A stretch of DNA of 64,000 nucleotides, from the NCBI GenBank assembly GCA_963741955.1, contig CAVUKB010000010.1, positions 504,260 to 568,259 on the forward strand. The letters are read 5' to 3'. Positions 3,551-24,645 of the stretch are shown piece by piece (within the stretch, counting starts at the first letter, position 1; each line of letters starts with the position of its first letter). The stretch is from an uncultured Acidobacteriota bacterium (GTDB lineage: Bacteria > Acidobacteriota > Thermoanaerobaculia > Gp7-AA8). Below the pieces are notes generated by a model, which worked only from the letters and a program-made list of their open reading frames with translations, was not told where the DNA came from and did not search any database. The position numbers were made by a program, and so were the translations under genes.

Positions 3551-4753
3551 ATGAACTTCTCGAGACGCACGAACTGGGCGGCCGGGACGAACCGGATCAC
3601 GCTGGCGATCGAGGCGCGGCGACGCGCCGGGTACGAGATTCTCGACCTGACGGAAACGAACCCCACCCGGGTCGGACTCGAATATCCGGACGACGAGCTC
3701 GCATCGATTCTCGGACGCTCCAGCCGCGCGCGCTATGCGCCCGAATCGCTCGGGCTCTCGTCCGCACGGGAGTCGCTCGCAGCGAACATTCGAGCCGCCG
3801 GATTCGAGATCGATCCCGGCCGGATCGTCCTCACCGCGTCCACCAGCGAGGCGTACAGCTTTCTCTTCCGCCTTCTCTGCGATCCCGGCGACTCGGTGCT
3901 CACCGGAGTTCCCTCCTACCCGCTGCTCGACCATCTCACCGCGCTCGACTCGGTGCGGCTCCTCCAGTTCCAGTTCCGCTGGCACGGCCGGTGGGAGCCG
4001 GACCTCCTCTCTCTGGCGGAGACGCTGGAAGAGCGAAGTCGCGCGCTCGTCGCGGTCCATCCGAACAATCCGACCGGAACGTATCTCGATCCGACGGAGC
4101 AGGACGCACTCGCAGCAGTCGCGCGCGAGAAGAAGATGGCGCTCGTCTCGGACGAAGTCTTCTTCGACTTTCCCCTGATGGACGGCGTCTCTCGAGCGCT
4201 CCCGGCATTCCTCCGGGAGGATGTGCTCGCGTTTTCACTCGGCGGGCTCTCCAAGAGTGCGGGCCTGCCGCACTGGAAACTCGGATGGATTCTCGTCGGC
4301 GGGCCGGAGGATCTCCGGCGCCGGGCGCTCGCGGGTCTCGAGCTGATTGCGGACACGTTCCTTTCCGTCTCCACGCCCGTTCAGGCCGCGCTTCCGGAGG
4401 TGTTGCGCGTCGCGCCCTCGATTCGCGACTCCATCACGGCGAGAACGCGCGCGAACCTCGCAGCGCTTCGAGAGGCTCTCGGGTTTTTGCCGGCCGTGGA
4501 GGTGCTGCCGGTGGAGGGAGGGTGGATGGCCGTGGTGCGCATTCCGCGGACGTGCACGGATGAGGAGCTGGTGATCGATCTCCTGGAGCGGAGCGGGGTT
4601 GTAGTCCAGCCCGGCTATCTCTTCGACTTCGCTCGGGACGGGTTTCTGGTGCTCTCGCTCCTCCCGCCGCTCGATCGGTTCCGGGAGGGAGTGGCCCGGC
4701 TTGCTGCATATCTGGCAGGGCGGACGGAAGAAATGGACATTCCCCTGGATTAA
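3551..4753 (+). CDS. PLP-dependent aminotransferase class I/II
   Basis: HPNNPTG, SDEVF and GGLSKSAGLPHWKLGW (PLP lysine) motifs. Confidence 0.9.
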   Translation: MNFSRRTNWAAGTNRITLAIEARRRAGYEILDLTETNPTRVGLEYPDDELASILGRSSRARYAPESLGLSSARESLAANIRAAGFEIDPGRIVLTASTSEAYSFLFRLLCDPGDSVLTGVPSYPLLDHLTALDSVRLLQFQFRWHGRWEPDLLSLAETLEERSRALVAVHPNNPTGTYLDPTEQDALAAVAREKKMALVSDEVFFDFPLMDGVSRALPAFLREDVLAFSLGGLSKSAGLPHWKLGWILVGGPEDLRRRALAGLELIADTFLSVSTPVQAALPEVLRVAPSIRDSITARTRANLAALREALGFLPAVEVLPVEGGWMAVVRIPRTCTDEELVIDLLERSGVVVQPGYLFDFARDGFLVLSLLPPLDRFREGVARLAAYLAGRTEEMDIPLD

Positions 4754-4762
4754 GCTATTGAA

Positions 4763-5773
4763 ATGATCTCGCCCGCCGACACTCTCGGCAGACCGCTTCG
4801 TGATCTGCGGATCTCGGTCACCGATCGCTGCAACTTTCGCTGTGTGTACTGCATGCCGCGGGAGGTGTTCGGGCGCGACTTTCACTTTCTTCCACCCGAA
4901 ATGCTCCTCTCTTTCGAGGAGATCACCCGGTTAGCGCGAATTTTCGTGTCGCTCGGCGTGGTGAAGATCCGCATCACCGGCGGCGAGCCTCTGCTGCGTC
5001 ACGATCTGGAGAGGTTGGTCGCGATGCTCGCCCGCATCGAAGGGCTCCAGGATCTGACCCTCACCACCAACGGCTCGCTGCTGGAACAGAAGGCCGGGGT
5101 GCTCCGAGAGGCCGGGCTGAAACGGGTGACGGTGAGCCTCGACTCGCTCGACGACGACGTCTTCCGGAGGATGAACGACGTCGACTTCGGGGTCGATCGC
5201 GTTCTGCGCGGCATCGACGCGGCGGTCCGGGCGGGCTTCTCGCCGGTCAAGATCAACATGGTTCTTCGTCGCGGATTGAACGACGGCACGGTCGTCGACG
5301 TGGCGCGCTTTTTCCGCGGGCCTGGATTCGTGGTCCGGTTCATCGAGTACATGGACGTCGGAAACACGAACGGCTGGAGGCTCGACGACGTCGTGCCCTC
5401 CGCCGAAGTGCTGGAGCGGATCGCACGGGAGCTGCCGCTCGAACCGATGGAAGGATCGTATCGGGGGGAAGTCGCCGAGCGGTACCGCTACCGGGATGGA
5501 GGAGGCGAGATCGGCTTCATCTCATCGGTCACGCGTCCGTTCTGCGGCGATTGTACCCGGGCCCGCCTTTCGTCGGACGGGATGCTCTACAGCTGTCTTT
5601 TCGCCTCCCAGGGGACGGATCTCCGTTCCCTCCTCAGGGGAGCGGCCGGCGATGCGGAAGTCGCCGACGTGCTGCGACAGATCTGGATCTCGCGAACCGA
5701 TCGATACTCCGAGCTCCGGACTGCAGAGACCAGTGGTCTCCCGAAGGTGGAGATGTCCCGGGTCGGCGGATAA
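4763..5773 (+). CDS. moaA: GTP 3',8-cyclase MoaA
   Basis: [18 protein letters not shown] radical-SAM motif, second cluster FCGDCTRAR...C, C-terminal MSRVGG. Confidence 0.97.
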
Positions 5774-19609: not shown

Positions 19610-19731
19610 GAGCGGTGAGCGGTGAGCGGTGAGCGCAGAATGTTCTCGAGCCTGGTGTAGAAACAGAAGAGTCTTACGCTCGTCGCTCGTCGCTCGTCGC
19701 TCGTCGCTCGTCGCTCGTCGCTCGTCGCTCG
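19610..19731. repeat. Inverted pair of heptamer tandem arrays: (GAGCGGT)x3.7 and (CGCTCGT)x7.9
   Basis: Directly visible at 19610-19635 and 19677-19731; the arms are complementary with G-U pairs. Confidence 0.9.
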
Positions 19732-19764: not shown

Positions 19765-20517
19765 ATGGAATTGAAGCAGGAACAGAACAAGATCAAGATC
19801 CCCGGGAAACCTCGCGAGACGATGGAGGACCGGCATCTCCTCGACCGTCCCACTCTAGCCGCAACCCTGCAGAGCGACTCGTGGCGTGTGCTGCGGATCA
19901 CCAGCGAGTTCGTGACGGGATTCGACCAGCTCTCGGATATCTATCCTGCAGTCTCGATCTTCGGCTCGGCGCGGACGCTCCCCGACAACCCCTACTACGA
20001 GAGGTGCGTCGCCACCGCAGAATGCCTCGGCCGTGCCGGCTTCGCCATCATCAGCGGCGGAGGACCGGGGATGATGGAAGCGGCGAACCGCGGCGCGCGC
20101 CAGGCGGGCGCACTCTCAGTCGGCTGCAACATCGAGCTGCCGTTCGAGCAGCAGGTGAATCCGTACGTCGACAAAGCACTGACGTTCCGCTATTTCTTCG
20201 TCCGCAAGACGATGTTCGTGAAGTACTCCGAGGCGTTCATCGCGTTTCCGGGGGGCTTCGGAACTCTCGACGAGCTGTTCGACGCGCTCACATTGATCCA
20301 GACCCAGAAGATCTCGGATTTTCCGGTGATCCTCTTCGGCGTCGATTACTGGAGTGGATTGATCGGGTGGCTTCGCGACACGGTGCTCGCTGCAGGAAAC
20401 ATCGTCAGCCAGGACGTCGACAGCATTCACGTTGTGGACGACCCGGACGAGGTGGCGAATATCGTCTCCGATTACCACCGGCAGGCACTGGCGAACAACG
20501 GGAAGAGCTCACGCTGA
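19765..20517 (+). CDS. LOG family (TIGR00730) nucleotide phosphoribohydrolase
   Basis: SIFGSART, SGGGPGMMEAAN, FFVRK and FPGGFGTLDE motifs. Confidence 0.92.
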   Translation: MELKQEQNKIKIPGKPRETMEDRHLLDRPTLAATLQSDSWRVLRITSEFVTGFDQLSDIYPAVSIFGSARTLPDNPYYERCVATAECLGRAGFAIISGGGPGMMEAANRGARQAGALSVGCNIELPFEQQVNPYVDKALTFRYFFVRKTMFVKYSEAFIAFPGGFGTLDELFDALTLIQTQKISDFPVILFGVDYWSGLIGWLRDTVLAAGNIVSQDVDSIHVVDDPDEVANIVSDYHRQALANNGKSSR

Positions 20518-22995
20518 GCCGGGCTCACCGCCCCTCGCATTTTCCAGACGCCTGCGGAGCGGGAACGCGATGGTCGCCAGCACCGCCGCAGCCGCGAAGA
20601 ATGGCGCGGGAACGATTCCCCCCGTGAGCGCTGCGAGGGAGAGCGCGATCACGTTGAAGATGATCGCCAGCCGGATCCGCTTCCGGATCGAGCCGATCAT
20701 CGCACGGGCGGTCTCGCAGATCTCGGCGAGGATTCCCGGCTCTTCGCCGGTGATGATCATGTCCGCGTCGAGATTCGATGCCGCCGGGCCGAATGCGATC
20801 CCGAGATCGGTCGCAGCGAGAAACTGAAGATCTCGAGGATCGGCGCTGACGCCGGCAACCGGCGACTCGCGCCGGAGAGACGTCGCGATCTCGATCCGTC
20901 GTCCGGACGATGCGGCGGCGGTGAAGGCGGCGATCCCTGCTGCGGATGCAATCGCACCCGCAGTCGCCACGTCTTCACCGGAGAGAATACGCGGTTCGAA
21001 TCCGAGGGCTTCGATCCGGTGCATCGCGGCGGGAGCCGCGGGACGGGCGGCGTCCGACACGACGATCAGCCCCGACAGCTGCTGCTCGATGGCGATGCCG
21101 ATCGTGTTCTTCCCCGCTGCCGTGAAGCCGGCGAGCTCTTCGGAGATTCCGCTGACGTCGATCCCCTCGGCGGCGAGAAATTCAATCCGGCCGACCCGCA
21201 CCGTCCGTCCGTCGACCACCGAACGCACTCCTTTTCCTTCGCTGCCGTGGTAATCCCGGCGCTCGGCACCCGCCGCGACCGCGTTCCCTCGTGACGCGAT
21301 CGCTCGCGCGACCGGATGATCGGCATTCTCTGCCGCAGCGGAAGCGACGCGGAGAAGCTCGCTCTGGCTGATGCCGCCGAGAAGCACGTACTCGGTGACG
21401 CGAGGATTCCCTCCCGTGATCACGCCACGCGGGCGCAGCAGGAGAGCCTGGACGCGACCGAGCACGTCGTAGCAGCTCGCGCTGCGCGCGTACACTCCGA
21501 TCTCCGTCCCACGGCGGAGTGCCGCGTCGTGAAATGCTGCCGAAACGAGTGAGACTGCACGCGGCGCCACCGCGACGAGGACCGCGGCGAACGCGGCGAT
21601 GGCATACGACCACGGATGCGCCGGTGTGAGGATCGCCCATCCGGCAAGTGCAGCCGGCGCCAGCAGCGCCGTTGCCACCATCAACGCACGCGACGCCTTC
21701 ATCTCCGCCGGGCCGACGGGGCGTGAGAGCACCGCCGCCATTCGTTTGTGCATCGTCTCGTTCGCCGCCGCCGTAACGCGTACTCGCAGTGTTCCTTCGA
21801 CGATCCGGCAACCGGAGAAGAGCGGGTCACCGGTCGACTTCGAGACGGCGTTCGGCTCGCCGGCCGTCATCTCTTCGACACGCGCTTCCCCCTCCACCAC
21901 CGTCCCGTCGATCCACGCCTGGTCACCTTTGCGCAGCTCGACGACGTCGTCCGTCGAGATCTCCGCAGCGGGAACCTCGACGACACGATCTCCTTTCACC
22001 AGGCGCGTCTCGCCGCCGTCGAGCTTCGCGAACCGATTGCTCCAGGAAGCTGCGCGCTGCCGCGCCGTCGTGTCGGCCCTCACTGCAATCAGCCACACCA
22101 GTACCAGCCACGAAGCGGTGACATAGTGCAGCCCGGTCACGACTCCCGCGTCTGGCGCGAGGAGCGAAACGAAGGTTTGGGCCATCGAGGCCAGCAGCAG
22201 AGTCGCAACCGACACGGTGTACAGCAATCCGGCGGAGATCCGCCCTCTCCGCAGTGACGCCCATCCTACGATCGCAGCGTCCTTCATCAGCCATCCGAGG
22301 AGGAGAGCGATCGCGATCAGGGCGCCGCCCGCGACTCCCGCGCGAAGAAGTCCGAGCGAAGGCCAGGACGAGAGTGCCGCCGTTCGGATCCAGGCGTATG
22401 CGGCTCCGGAATCGCCGAATGTCGCGAGCGACACTTCGAGCAGAGTCGCACCGCCGGCTGCGAGGAACGCGAGGATGATCGCGCCCCACCCGATTCCGCT
22501 CCGGACTTTCTGTTCTTTGTCGACTGCGGCGTAGCCCGATCTCCGGATTGCGGCGTGAATCGCCTGGATGTCGGTCTGAACCGGATCGTACTCGACGAGG
22601 ATCTCGTCGCGGAGAAGGTCGATCTCGACCGCGCTGACACCGTGGAGCGATTCGATCGACCGCCGGATGGAAAGAGCGTCGGGAGCGTCGAAGGAGACGC
22701 CGCGGAGGTGAAGGCGAGTCCTTGATCGGCCGGGATCGAATCCGGCCGATTCGATCAGCGGCAGGAGTGACGGGAGGGCTTTTTCATCGTCCAGAGAAAG
22801 GGTCGCCTGCTGCTGGAAGAGGCTGACCCGGATGGACCGGACTCCCGGTTCGCTCCCCAGTCTCGTCTCGAGCCGGCGCGCGCAGCACTGGCAATCGAGG
22901 CCTGGAAGCGAGAGGGTGAGCGTGACGGCCTTGGCTCCGGAGTCGTTCGCTCGAGGATCAGTCTGCCTGTGCATGTCAGCGCTGGTGCTTCGCAT
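20509..22995 (-). CDS. P1B-type (heavy-metal) ATPase homologue with degenerate catalytic motifs
   Basis: Two HMA domains, TM, A, P and N domains are collinear with CopA-type ATPases, but DKTGT=RPRGV, CPC=APR, TGE=AGE and GDGIND=SADPRD. Confidence 0.8.
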   Translation of the reverse strand: MRSTSADMHRQTDPRANDSGAKAVTLTLSLPGLDCQCCARRLETRLGSEPGVRSIRVSLFQQQATLSLDDEKALPSLLPLIESAGFDPGRSRTRLHLRGVSFDAPDALSIRRSIESLHGVSAVEIDLLRDEILVEYDPVQTDIQAIHAAIRRSGYAAVDKEQKVRSGIGWGAIILAFLAAGGATLLEVSLATFGDSGAAYAWIRTAALSSWPSLGLLRAGVAGGALIAIALLLGWLMKDAAIVGWASLRRGRISAGLLYTVSVATLLLASMAQTFVSLLAPDAGVVTGLHYVTASWLVLVWLIAVRADTTARQRAASWSNRFAKLDGGETRLVKGDRVVEVPAAEISTDDVVELRKGDQAWIDGTVVEGEARVEEMTAGEPNAVSKSTGDPLFSGCRIVEGTLRVRVTAAANETMHKRMAAVLSRPVGPAEMKASRALMVATALLAPAALAGWAILTPAHPWSYAIAAFAAVLVAVAPRAVSLVSAAFHDAALRRGTEIGVYARSASCYDVLGRVQALLLRPRGVITGGNPRVTEYVLLGGISQSELLRVASAAAENADHPVARAIASRGNAVAAGAERRDYHGSEGKGVRSVVDGRTVRVGRIEFLAAEGIDVSGISEELAGFTAAGKNTIGIAIEQQLSGLIVVSDAARPAAPAAMHRIEALGFEPRILSGEDVATAGAIASAAGIAAFTAAASSGRRIEIATSLRRESPVAGVSADPRDLQFLAATDLGIAFGPAASNLDADMIITGEEPGILAEICETARAMIGSIRKRIRLAIIFNVIALSLAALTGGIVPAPFFAAAAVLATIAFPLRRRLENARGGEPGSA

Positions 22996-23087
22996 TCAAC
23001 CACGACCTGATGTTATTTGTGGCATTTGTCTAGCACCGTTTTCTCCAGAGCACGAAGTCGTGTGCCCGGCCGTGGAGGGAGGATTAA

Positions 23088-23300
23088 ATGCGAATAGAAG
23101 AGACAAATCAAATTCTGAAAGATGCGAAGCAGCGGGGACATTCCGTCCACGAGCAGAAGGGAACGGGAGCGCGGTTTTCCGAGGCGCTCCACAACCGTGG
23201 CGTGCAATCGGCTCTGACGGTGGCAGGTGTCGCTGCGGTGGTCGGACTCGGAAGCTGGTTGGCGCGATCGCGACGACCGCGACCCTGGTACGAGATCTGA
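23088..23300 (+). CDS. Small protein with a C-terminal TM anchor
   Basis: GGAGGA RBS; possible sigma54 element TGGCATTTGTCTAGCA at 23020-23035. Confidence 0.6.
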   Translation: MRIEETNQILKDAKQRGHSVHEQKGTGARFSEALHNRGVQSALTVAGVAAVVGLGSWLARSRRPRPWYEI

Positions 23301-23334: not shown

Positions 23335-24645
23335 TCATGGCTCTCCGCTCCTCCTGGTGACCAGAACCCACCTCACTCTGTACCGCTCACCTTCGAGGAC
23401 TTCGAGGGTCAGATCGCCGAGGTCGACCCGATCCCCGGGGGAGACCTCGCGTCCCAGTGTGGCCGCGACATATCCACCGATCGTTTCTTCGGGAGGCTCG
23501 CCGACGTCGATCTTGAGCCGGTCCGCCAGATCTTCGATCAGGTAGTCGCCGCGGATCCGGTAGCGGCCCTCGCCGAGACGCTCGACCTCGAGCCTCTCAC
23601 GATCGAATTCGTCCTGAATCTGCCCGAAGAGCTCTTCGGTGATGTTCTCCATCGAAACGATGCCGGATGCACCGCCATACTCGTCGAGGATCACCGCGAG
23701 ATGGGTCCGGTGGTCGAGGAACTGGTGGAGGAGGTTCTCGACCGTGGTGTTCTCCGGAACGAAGAGCGCCTCCCTCTTGAGGTCCATCAGCGTGCGACCC
23801 GGACCTTTGAGCTGGGCAAGAAAGAGGTCCTTCACGTGGATGATCCCGACGACGTGATCGAGGTCGCCGTTGCAGAGTGGATAGCGGGTATGTCCGGTTT
23901 TGAGAATGGTGTCGAGATTCTCTTCGATGCTTCGGGTGACCGAGAGTATCACCACGTCCGTCCGCGGAACCATGATCTGACGCGCCGTCCGTCGCGAGAA
24001 CTGGAAGACGCCTTCAATGATCTCGAGGTTCGGCTCGGAGAGGATTCCCGCCTGTTCCGAATGGGCCAGGATCAGGCGCAGCTCTTCCTGCGAATGAGCC
24101 ACTTCGGCCTCACTTGCCGGGCGGATCCCGATCGTTCGGAGGACGAGATTGGAGAAACTGTTCAGGACGAAGATCGCGGGATACATCACGACGTAGAAGG
24201 CGTGGAGTGGGTGAGCGATCCAGAGGGCGGAGCTCACTGGTTTCTGGATTGCGAGGGACTTCGGTGCGAGCTCGCCGAACACGATATGGAGCACGGTGAT
24301 GATCAGGAACGCGACTGACGCTGCGATGGAGTGAGCGACCGGGACGGCGAACGCTCCGAGCCGGACGAACCACGGCACGAGGAGGGAGGCGAACGCCGGT
24401 TCACCGATCCAGCCGAGAGCCAGGGATGCGAGCGTGATTCCGAGCTGGGTGGCCGAGAGATAGACATCCAGACGGCGGGTCAGGCGGAGTGCCATCTTCG
24501 CACGGGGGTCGTTCTTCGCCGCGAGCTCTGTGAGCTGCGTCGGCCGAACCTTCACGATCGCGAATTCGGCGGCGACGAAATAACCGTTGGCCAGGACGAA
24601 GAAAAAGGCCAGGACGAGATACCAGGCGCTCATTGGAGAGGCCAT
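23335..24645 (-). CDS. HlyC/CorC (CNNM-CBS-CorC) family transporter
   Basis: NGYFVAAEFAIV, QLGITLASLALGWIGEP, GELAPK, tandem CBS domains, DEYGG. Confidence 0.93.
   Translation of the reverse strand: MASPMSAWYLVLAFFFVLANGYFVAAEFAIVKVRPTQLTELAAKNDPRAKMALRLTRRLDVYLSATQLGITLASLALGWIGEPAFASLLVPWFVRLGAFAVPVAHSIAASVAFLIITVLHIVFGELAPKSLAIQKPVSSALWIAHPLHAFYVVMYPAIFVLNSFSNLVLRTIGIRPASEAEVAHSQEELRLILAHSEQAGILSEPNLEIIEGVFQFSRRTARQIMVPRTDVVILSVTRSIEENLDTILKTGHTRYPLCNGDLDHVVGIIHVKDLFLAQLKGPGRTLMDLKREALFVPENTTVENLLHQFLDHRTHLAVILDEYGGASGIVSMENITEELFGQIQDEFDRERLEVERLGEGRYRIRGDYLIEDLADRLKIDVGEPPEETIGGYVAATLGREVSPGDRVDLGDLTLEVLEGERYRVRWVLVTRRSGEP

Follow-up and report, generated by a model that had tools for sequence, protein, structure and literature searches.

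We analyzed a 64,000-nucleotide stretch of DNA (hereafter, the window) from an uncultured Acidobacteriota bacterium (NCBI GenBank assembly GCA_963741955.1, contig CAVUKB010000010.1, positions 504,260 to 568,259). The window contains a minus-strand gene (22995..20509) for a relative of the P1B-type ATPase CopA in which catalytic and transport motifs are replaced; we call its product the pseudo-pump. The gene lies between a gene for a CNNM/CorC-type membrane protein and a convergent LOG/SLOG-family gene (Table 1). The initial annotation described it as an uninterrupted CopA-like open reading frame (ORF) of 828 aa. Indeed, the frame has zero internal stops, and the best sequence match of the protein is A. 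fulgidus CopA (3j09, E 7e-51). Its entry in the protein collection begins at Met8 and has 821 aa.

Sequence and predicted fold of the window protein

Alignment with A. fulgidus CopA bore out the substitutions listed in the annotation. The phosphorylation motif DKTGT is RPRGV, with no Asp, and the intramembrane CPC is APR. In the P domain, TGD is replaced with SGE, the conserved Lys with R700 and GDGIND with SADPRD. In helices M5-M6, YN is FN and MxxS is absent. The actuator change from TGE to AGE, also counted as loss of an invariant site, is present but mild, as Gly-Glu is kept and A. fulgidus CopA itself has SGE. The protein retains, as annotated, a first HMA domain with an intact CxxC (within DCQCC), a second, Cys-less HMA domain, the N-domain HP and EGKG (GxG) motifs and the membrane helices, which were seen by Pfam (matches to E1-E2_ATPase, two HMA stretches and Hydrolase), in the structural model and in the alignment. 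P-type ATPases are defined by a phosphorylated aspartate. Because the Asp of DKTGT is missing, an E1P/E2P cycle is impossible, and by established P-type chemistry the window protein cannot form an aspartyl-phosphate or pump.

The extent of these changes was assessed with 115 alignment columns showing invariance of 95% or more across 74 canonical P1B sequences. The window protein matched 51 of the 115, compared to at least 105 for each canonical sequence, the columns having been defined on those same sequences. Among P1B ORFs of unrelated loci, 164 of 165 had D[KR]TGT; the remaining one had DKTAT, with the Asp kept. In addition, the window protein failed the NCBIfam cut-offs of TIGR01525 (202.5 versus 346.25 bits) and TIGR01511 (152.4 versus 397 bits). 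As far as can be seen, the motif loss is not an assembly slip: one contig (depth 10), possibly from the source sample, spans 20303-23178 with 0 differences, and short contigs of a second run are identical to the gene, one of them spanning the APR codons. A promoter and terminator scan found nothing.

The AlphaFold model of the window protein (mean predicted local distance difference test, pLDDT, 72; predicted template modeling score, pTM, 0.61) contained eight long membrane helices and a pair of HMA domains, and its P and N domains were well formed. Foldseek ranked ATP7B and CopA first, and the P and N fold matched the CopA ATP-binding domain 2b8e with a template modeling (TM) score of 0.89 by target and a root-mean-square deviation (rmsd) of 2.4, suggesting that the fold is retained. 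The actuator region had pLDDT below 50, probably because only two of 12 aligned rows carry that domain. The protein is thus predicted to have the P1B eight-helix topology with P and N domains, and the loss of catalytic residues from a fold that is predicted to stay fits a pseudoenzyme.

Table 1. Features of the pseudo-pump gene and its neighbors (positions in the window)
Feature	Position	Strand	Remarks
Pseudo-P1B-ATPase gene	20509..22995	-	828 aa (821 aa from Met8)
Metal-binding domain 1 (MBD1, HMA fold, ~residues 24-88)	22732..22926	-	CxxC C35/C38 at 22893-22882
Metal-binding domain 2 (HMA fold, no CxxC, ~residues 90-158)	22522..22728	-	
Membrane helices MA, MB, M1, M2 (~residues 168-312)	22060..22494	-	Clade-specific Trp296 in M2
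Actuator domain (~residues 322-424)	21724..22032	-	AGE at 21864-21856
Helices M3-M4	21520..21702	-	APR for CPC at 21567-21559
RPRGV at DKTGT phosphorylation position	21421..21435	-	No Asp
N domain	21052..21402	-	Clade-conserved VLLxG (537-541), R569, EE (619-620), GK (628-629)
P-domain second half: SGE, R700, SADPRD	20701..21051	-	Fold predicted retained
Helices M5-M6	20542..20688	-	FN for YN, no MxxS
Small divergent ORF, 70 aa	23088..23300	+	Context only; non-carrier genomes have it too
CNNM/CorC-type CBS membrane protein	23335..24645	-	Upstream synteny anchor; pseudo-pump does not require it
LOG/SLOG-family gene	19765..20517	+	Convergent, 3' ends overlap pseudo-pump gene; synteny anchor

Orthologues, shared losses and selection

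Of the 124 family genomes, 12 were found to carry an orthologue, representing 10 genera on one Thermoanaerobaculia branch. This number is a lower bound, as the family search scored eight candidates per genome and missed one carrier, G025. Four genomes marked unpublished (G042, G076, G116 and G117) count only toward the search totals, and none of the claims made here depends on them. The orthologues first appeared as weak matches; on reading, they were P1B-like ORFs just as degenerate and in the corresponding position, flanked by aroA/CNNM on one side and on the other by genes for LOG, a DUF11-like lipoprotein, a NagK-like kinase and an OmpW-like protein (the last label was read from the sequence and not from a search). 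NCBI names for these organisms are Thermoanaerobaculia or Acidobacteriota, and the proteins carry database labels of HAD hydrolase, cation transporter or hypothetical protein. Among 60 further CNNM loci, the gene was present in one, the site was bridged without it in 50, and nine ended or were rearranged before the site. No intact copA occupied the site in these 60 loci or in two sister-family loci, and two sister-family genomes had no P1B gene near the lipoprotein gene.

In a tree of neighboring genes, 11 carriers and four non-carriers (G005, G006, G081 and G082) formed one 15-genome branch with approximate likelihood-ratio (SH-aLRT) support of 100; G112 was left out because of gaps. A profile search of the four non-carriers yielded canonical-level matches only. 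The 12 pseudo-pumps formed one clade, apart from the working CopA of the family (FastTree support 1.0; SH-aLRT 99 under a mixture model in a quick IQ-TREE tree, with branches too long to place the sister group). Neither tree supported a recent duplicate of the family copA. The actuator domain is present only in the window genome (G000) and G001 and is deleted in the other 10 orthologues. Because G000 and G001 are not sisters, the domain was probably lost more than once. A search of the class (401 genomes, two candidates per genome scored) found no clade-level score outside the family. A set of 5.8 billion proteins returned only query rows and canonical pumps; known orthologues were missed, so this search is uninformative on range.

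Loss of the catalytic and transport motifs was common to all 12 orthologues, and none of them had an intact DKTGT or CPC. Asp at the catalytic column, both CPC cysteines, the second Thr of DKTGT, the Asn of GDGxND and the Glu of SEHP were each present in 0 of 12. The CPC position varied (APR, PIP, SPS, LPS, VPA, SSS, AIS, APG and APA), as did the YN position in M5 (YH, YQ, YG, WH, FN and FT). The clade kept structural Gly and Pro residues, the CxxC of MBD1 and new clade-specific residues: W296 (11/12), L538 (12/12), R569 (11/12) and E620 (12/12). CxxC was found in 10 of 12 orthologues and was invariant in the 10 aligned N-termini; of the exceptions, G022 has SRSG and G025 is without the first domain.

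This pattern bears on three alternative roles. An active ATPase with altered chemistry could be imagined from G001, in which an Asp is located one column from the phosphorylation site (LLDSALH). However, with no Asp at the column itself in any orthologue, uneven loss of TGD, the P-domain Lys and GDGxND, and the actuator deleted in 10 of 12, we regard this as extremely improbable. A nucleotide sensor, one of the roles initially suggested, would use the retained N domain; HP and EGKG are kept in the window protein, and its P and N domains fit 2b8e closely. Across the clade, however, HP was present in only six of 12, most orthologues had a deleted or altered GxG, and the SEHP Glu was never found in the alignment. 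ATP sensing is therefore very unlikely as a shared role. The annotation also considered a passive carrier, in which a membrane domain uncoupled from ATP would leak copper or another solute. All eight helices are kept, actuator loss could unlock the gate, and CopZ could feed the membrane domain, but CPC, YN and MxxS are gone and the 12 orthologues share no set of ligands in their place, making a secondary carrier quite unlikely.

Selection on the gene was examined by the ratio of nonsynonymous to synonymous substitutions (dN/dS; Nei-Gojobori counting with Jukes-Cantor correction) in two within-genus orthologue pairs. The ratio was 0.178 (bootstrap 0.15-0.22; dS 0.95) for G026/G113 and 0.158 (bootstrap 0.11-0.20; dS 1.83, near saturation) for G111/G112. 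Five regions of each pair gave 0.11-0.20, evenly along the chain, and the neighboring genes gave 0.05 (CNNM), 0.11 (aroA) and 0.20 (lipoprotein). Single unbroken ORFs of approximately 670-830 codons were found in 10 of 12 orthologues; the G022 copy is truncated by contig ends, and the G024 copy is frameshifted in an assembly in which CNNM and copA are broken too. These data point to purifying selection on the pseudo-pump across lineages.

The opposite possibility, a slowly decaying or nearly neutral remnant without present function, could account for very long branches, for identities of 19-39% between genera, for absence of the gene from most of the family and for the domain deletions, and the dN/dS pairs belong to lineages other than that of the window. 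Yet the low ratios at considerable dS, the open frames and persistence of the gene in G009, where it outlived deletion of the adjacent CNNM, argue against decay. We consider this explanation improbable and already largely refuted. The initial suggestion that the gene is maintained was borne out by the open frames, the shared losses and the dN/dS values, and a real, selected and catalytically dead P1B family appears highly probable from these comparisons.

The neighborhood offered two candidate partners. The pseudo-pump gene abuts or overlaps CNNM in G010, G022, G024, G026 and G113. However, CNNM was present in 114 of 124 family genomes, most of them without a pseudo-pump, and carriers G009, G111 and G112 yielded no CNNM match, so that an obligate partnership was ruled out. 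In G009 (locus L022, ~4750-4890), reading by eye showed that an internal deletion has left CNNM with just its first codons and its last ones, immediately upstream of an intact pseudo-pump gene. The small divergent ORF (Table 1) was also rejected as a partner because of its family-wide occurrence. Its N-terminus, MRIxETNxIL, is conserved, it lies downstream of CNNM in many carriers and non-carriers, and it had no Pfam match. Elsewhere in the window, an intergenic segment (19674-19720) contains short heptamer-like tandem repeats, which are frequent in the family (also in loci L405 and L371).

CopZ, copper genes and a proposed role

PF00403 matched only three places in G000: the two domains of the pseudo-pump and a CopZ-like gene of 74 aa outside the window (contig C1:166395-166616; locus L368:2396-2617, plus strand). 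The latter sits just upstream of an MBL-fold hydrolase gene that is present in 112 of 124 genomes. When 127 genomes were ranked with a copZ profile made from six copies, the top nine were carriers, three of them outside the profile, each with copZ beside the MBL hydrolase. Direct reading of this site detected copZ in 9/9 checkable CxxC carriers (the site was not found in G113, the tenth) and in 0/20 other loci, namely G022, G025, 15 family non-carriers (only 138 bases in G005) and three outgroups. In addition, the CxxC helix of MBD1 was net basic in 9/9 and CopZ was net acidic in 8/9. Judging from such co-occurrence, we consider a tie of the pseudo-pump to CopZ and copper moderately probable. 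The two genes do not form one operon, as they are 29-45 kb apart on one contig in G010, G024 and G111. A role as stand-in for a missing CopZ was ruled out, since carriers possess free CopZ.

Two further observations concern this site and the domains involved. In several carriers, copZ starts a few bases behind a TAnnnT-like hexamer, suggesting a leaderless transcript, and in G037 a long run of heptamer-like tandem repeats precedes the MBL gene. Separately, the non-carriers G019 and G125 (loci L374 and L382) encode proteins in which an HMA domain and a thioredoxin-like WCGPC domain are fused, following an N-terminus that resembles a signal peptide.

A canonical copA was sought elsewhere in the carrier genomes. 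G000 (99% complete) contains an intact CopA with CPC, DKTGT, YN and MxxS, preceded by csoR, as well as four further intact P-type ATPases. This active CopA has no HMA-fold domain; YHS-like and CPMHP repeats were read at its start. Intact CopA motifs were found in G000, G009, G010, G022, G025 and G111, and partly in G112. G113 had no PF00122 match at all. Downstream of copA in G000 (contig C5, ~277250-278600), several copies of a longer repeat were seen as repeated peptides in open frames.

From these features we propose that the CopA-derived pseudo-pump may serve as a CopZ-coupled, membrane-anchored copper relay or sensor, a reading that we judge evenly balanced between right and wrong. CopZ would load or unload Cu(I) at MBD1 via the N-terminal CxxC, the eight helices would anchor the protein in the membrane, and the P/N body with its clade-specific residues would form a docking surface through which a partner receives copper or a copper signal. 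This partner would most likely be the active CopA, which in G000 itself lacks an HMA-fold domain for pairing with CopZ. Among the roles initially offered, metal sensor or scaffold thus appear favored by the retained CxxC and the co-occurring CopZ.

Several points weigh against this proposal. The copZ pattern corresponds to one shared gain and a nested double loss in G022 (CxxC and copZ), giving two phylogenetically independent contrasts, both concordant (sign test p 0.5); common ancestry accounts for most of the pattern, so the link is suggestive and not proven. The CopZ of G000 itself is the exception in charge, being net basic (+4). G022 and G025 have neither CxxC nor copZ yet retain the gene, which may therefore owe some of its value to something other than copper. 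The membrane and P/N parts are under selection as strong as that on the MBDs, which is beyond the need of a simple tether, and the dN/dS values cover two within-genus pairs, the window lineage having no close relative. Hand-off to CopA is weakened by the failure to find canonical CopA in the incomplete carriers G026 and G113 (85% complete each) and G030 (82%). Finally, simple patterns detected no CsoR- or CueR-like box upstream of the pseudo-pump gene, copZ or copA.

The main rival explanation is a copper-independent scaffold or regulatory subunit of another membrane protein, either active CopA, in a heteromer like that of PH1 and PH5, or CNNM/CorC, with CxxC and copZ as co-inherited passengers. 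It would explain uniform selection along the protein, the clade-specific W296, L538, R569 and E620, maintenance of the gene without CxxC in G022 and G025 and its junction with CNNM in five genomes, and a precedent is offered by petunia PH1, as described in the accessible part of that report (PMC5903981). However, CNNM is widespread without the pseudo-pump, and three carriers gave no CNNM match (G009 retains just the two ends of this gene, joined together, upstream of the pseudo-pump gene). A canonical CopA likewise failed to turn up in three incomplete carriers, and CxxC was kept in 10 of 12 orthologues while the catalytic motifs decayed. On balance, a copper-independent scaffold seems rather unlikely, though it deserves to be taken seriously.

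Extending the copper relay or sensor proposal, we tentatively suggest, with considerable doubt, a new bacterial class of copper signaling or routing, in which an actuator-less dead pump with its own CopZ would respond to the load of Cu(I) in the cytoplasm by altering a membrane partner, and which would be one instance of a repeatedly evolved and overlooked actuator-less pseudo-P1B class. The Atlas offers leads only: Bacillota and Bacteroidota have clusters of look-alike proteins (527-655 aa) that lack the actuator family PF00122, and Actinomycetota has a cluster with Hydrolase alone. Of 13 chosen loci read in Bacillota (61 genomes, the phylum of a Bacillus-type genome), one had DSKGV and the other 12 had DKTGT. 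The former, an independent P1B-like ORF of 565 aa (G451 contig C5, L408:4060-5754, minus strand), keeps SCPC, has no actuator and looks CadA/ZntA-derived. Partly degenerate CopA-like proteins were also seen outside the clade (P0313, P0226 and P0271, with EKTG, TSGT and KAGT at the DKTGT site), and P0313 is at the head of a Nitrospinota cluster of 11 members. When close relatives of P0313 and P0226 were sought by locus searches, only canonical pumps appeared, at no more than 49% identity.

A selected, stand-alone bacterial pseudo-pump family would imply a second use of the P1B scaffold, one without catalysis, and a copper relay or sensor, if true, would be a rare non-pumping use of a pump family. 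As the actuator is present in some orthologues and absent from others, and CxxC and CopZ likewise, the family provides a natural deletion series for the long-argued role of MBDs and chaperones beyond feeding transport. Because current annotations read HAD hydrolase, cation transporter or hypothetical protein, the class is easily missed or counted as copper resistance.

Comparison with known systems

The literature searched, which included few subscription papers and no supplements, yielded no report of a bacterial pseudo-P1B family. A keyword look at the review PMC10654040, in the part available, also found no such class. The non-pumping P-type examples that we found, as far as the accessible portions of the papers go, were eukaryotic fusions or subunits.

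The pseudo-pump resembles P1B-1 Cu(I)-ATPases (CopA, ATP7B and rice HMA4) in domain order, the eight-helix membrane part, two HMA domains and the P/N fold. In HMA4, a CxxC domain is likewise followed by a CxxC-less domain adjoining the membrane, according to the available part of PMC10973460. The pseudo-pump differs from these pumps in lacking the DKTGT Asp, CPC, YN, MxxS and GDGxND, in loss of the actuator in 10 of 12 orthologues and in scores below the TIGR01525 and TIGR01511 cut-offs.

Among P-type proteins without transport, the P4-ATPase module of alveolate P4GC (Plasmodium GC-beta, Cryptosporidium) keeps the P-type fold with DKTGT altered or missing, and a supporting role has been suggested for it in the accessible text of PMC13466520. 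However, P4GC is eukaryotic, flippase-derived and fused to a cyclase for output, whereas the pseudo-pump is a stand-alone bacterial P1B protein without an output domain. Petunia PH1, a P3B-type ATPase, is thought not to transport and to act as partner of the active pump PH5; in the part of the paper that is available, it loses only a cation-binding Asp (PMC5903981). In contrast, the pseudo-pump loses phosphorylation, transport and often the actuator, and its partner is only proposed.

The proposed way of working is closest to that of CupA of Streptococcus pneumoniae and PacL of Mycobacterium tuberculosis, described in the accessible portions of PMC7558416 and PMC13460109 as membrane-anchored metal chaperones or scaffolds serving P1B pumps; fold-matched pairing of chaperone and pump domain is described in the former. 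The likeness is limited to this way of working. CupA and PacL are small, have just one helix and contain cupredoxin or DUF1490 parts, whereas the pseudo-pump is a whole dead pump with HMA domains, encoded far from copA. With an HMA fold on a predicted eight-helix body instead of a cupredoxin on a single helix, it would stand outside the CupA family.

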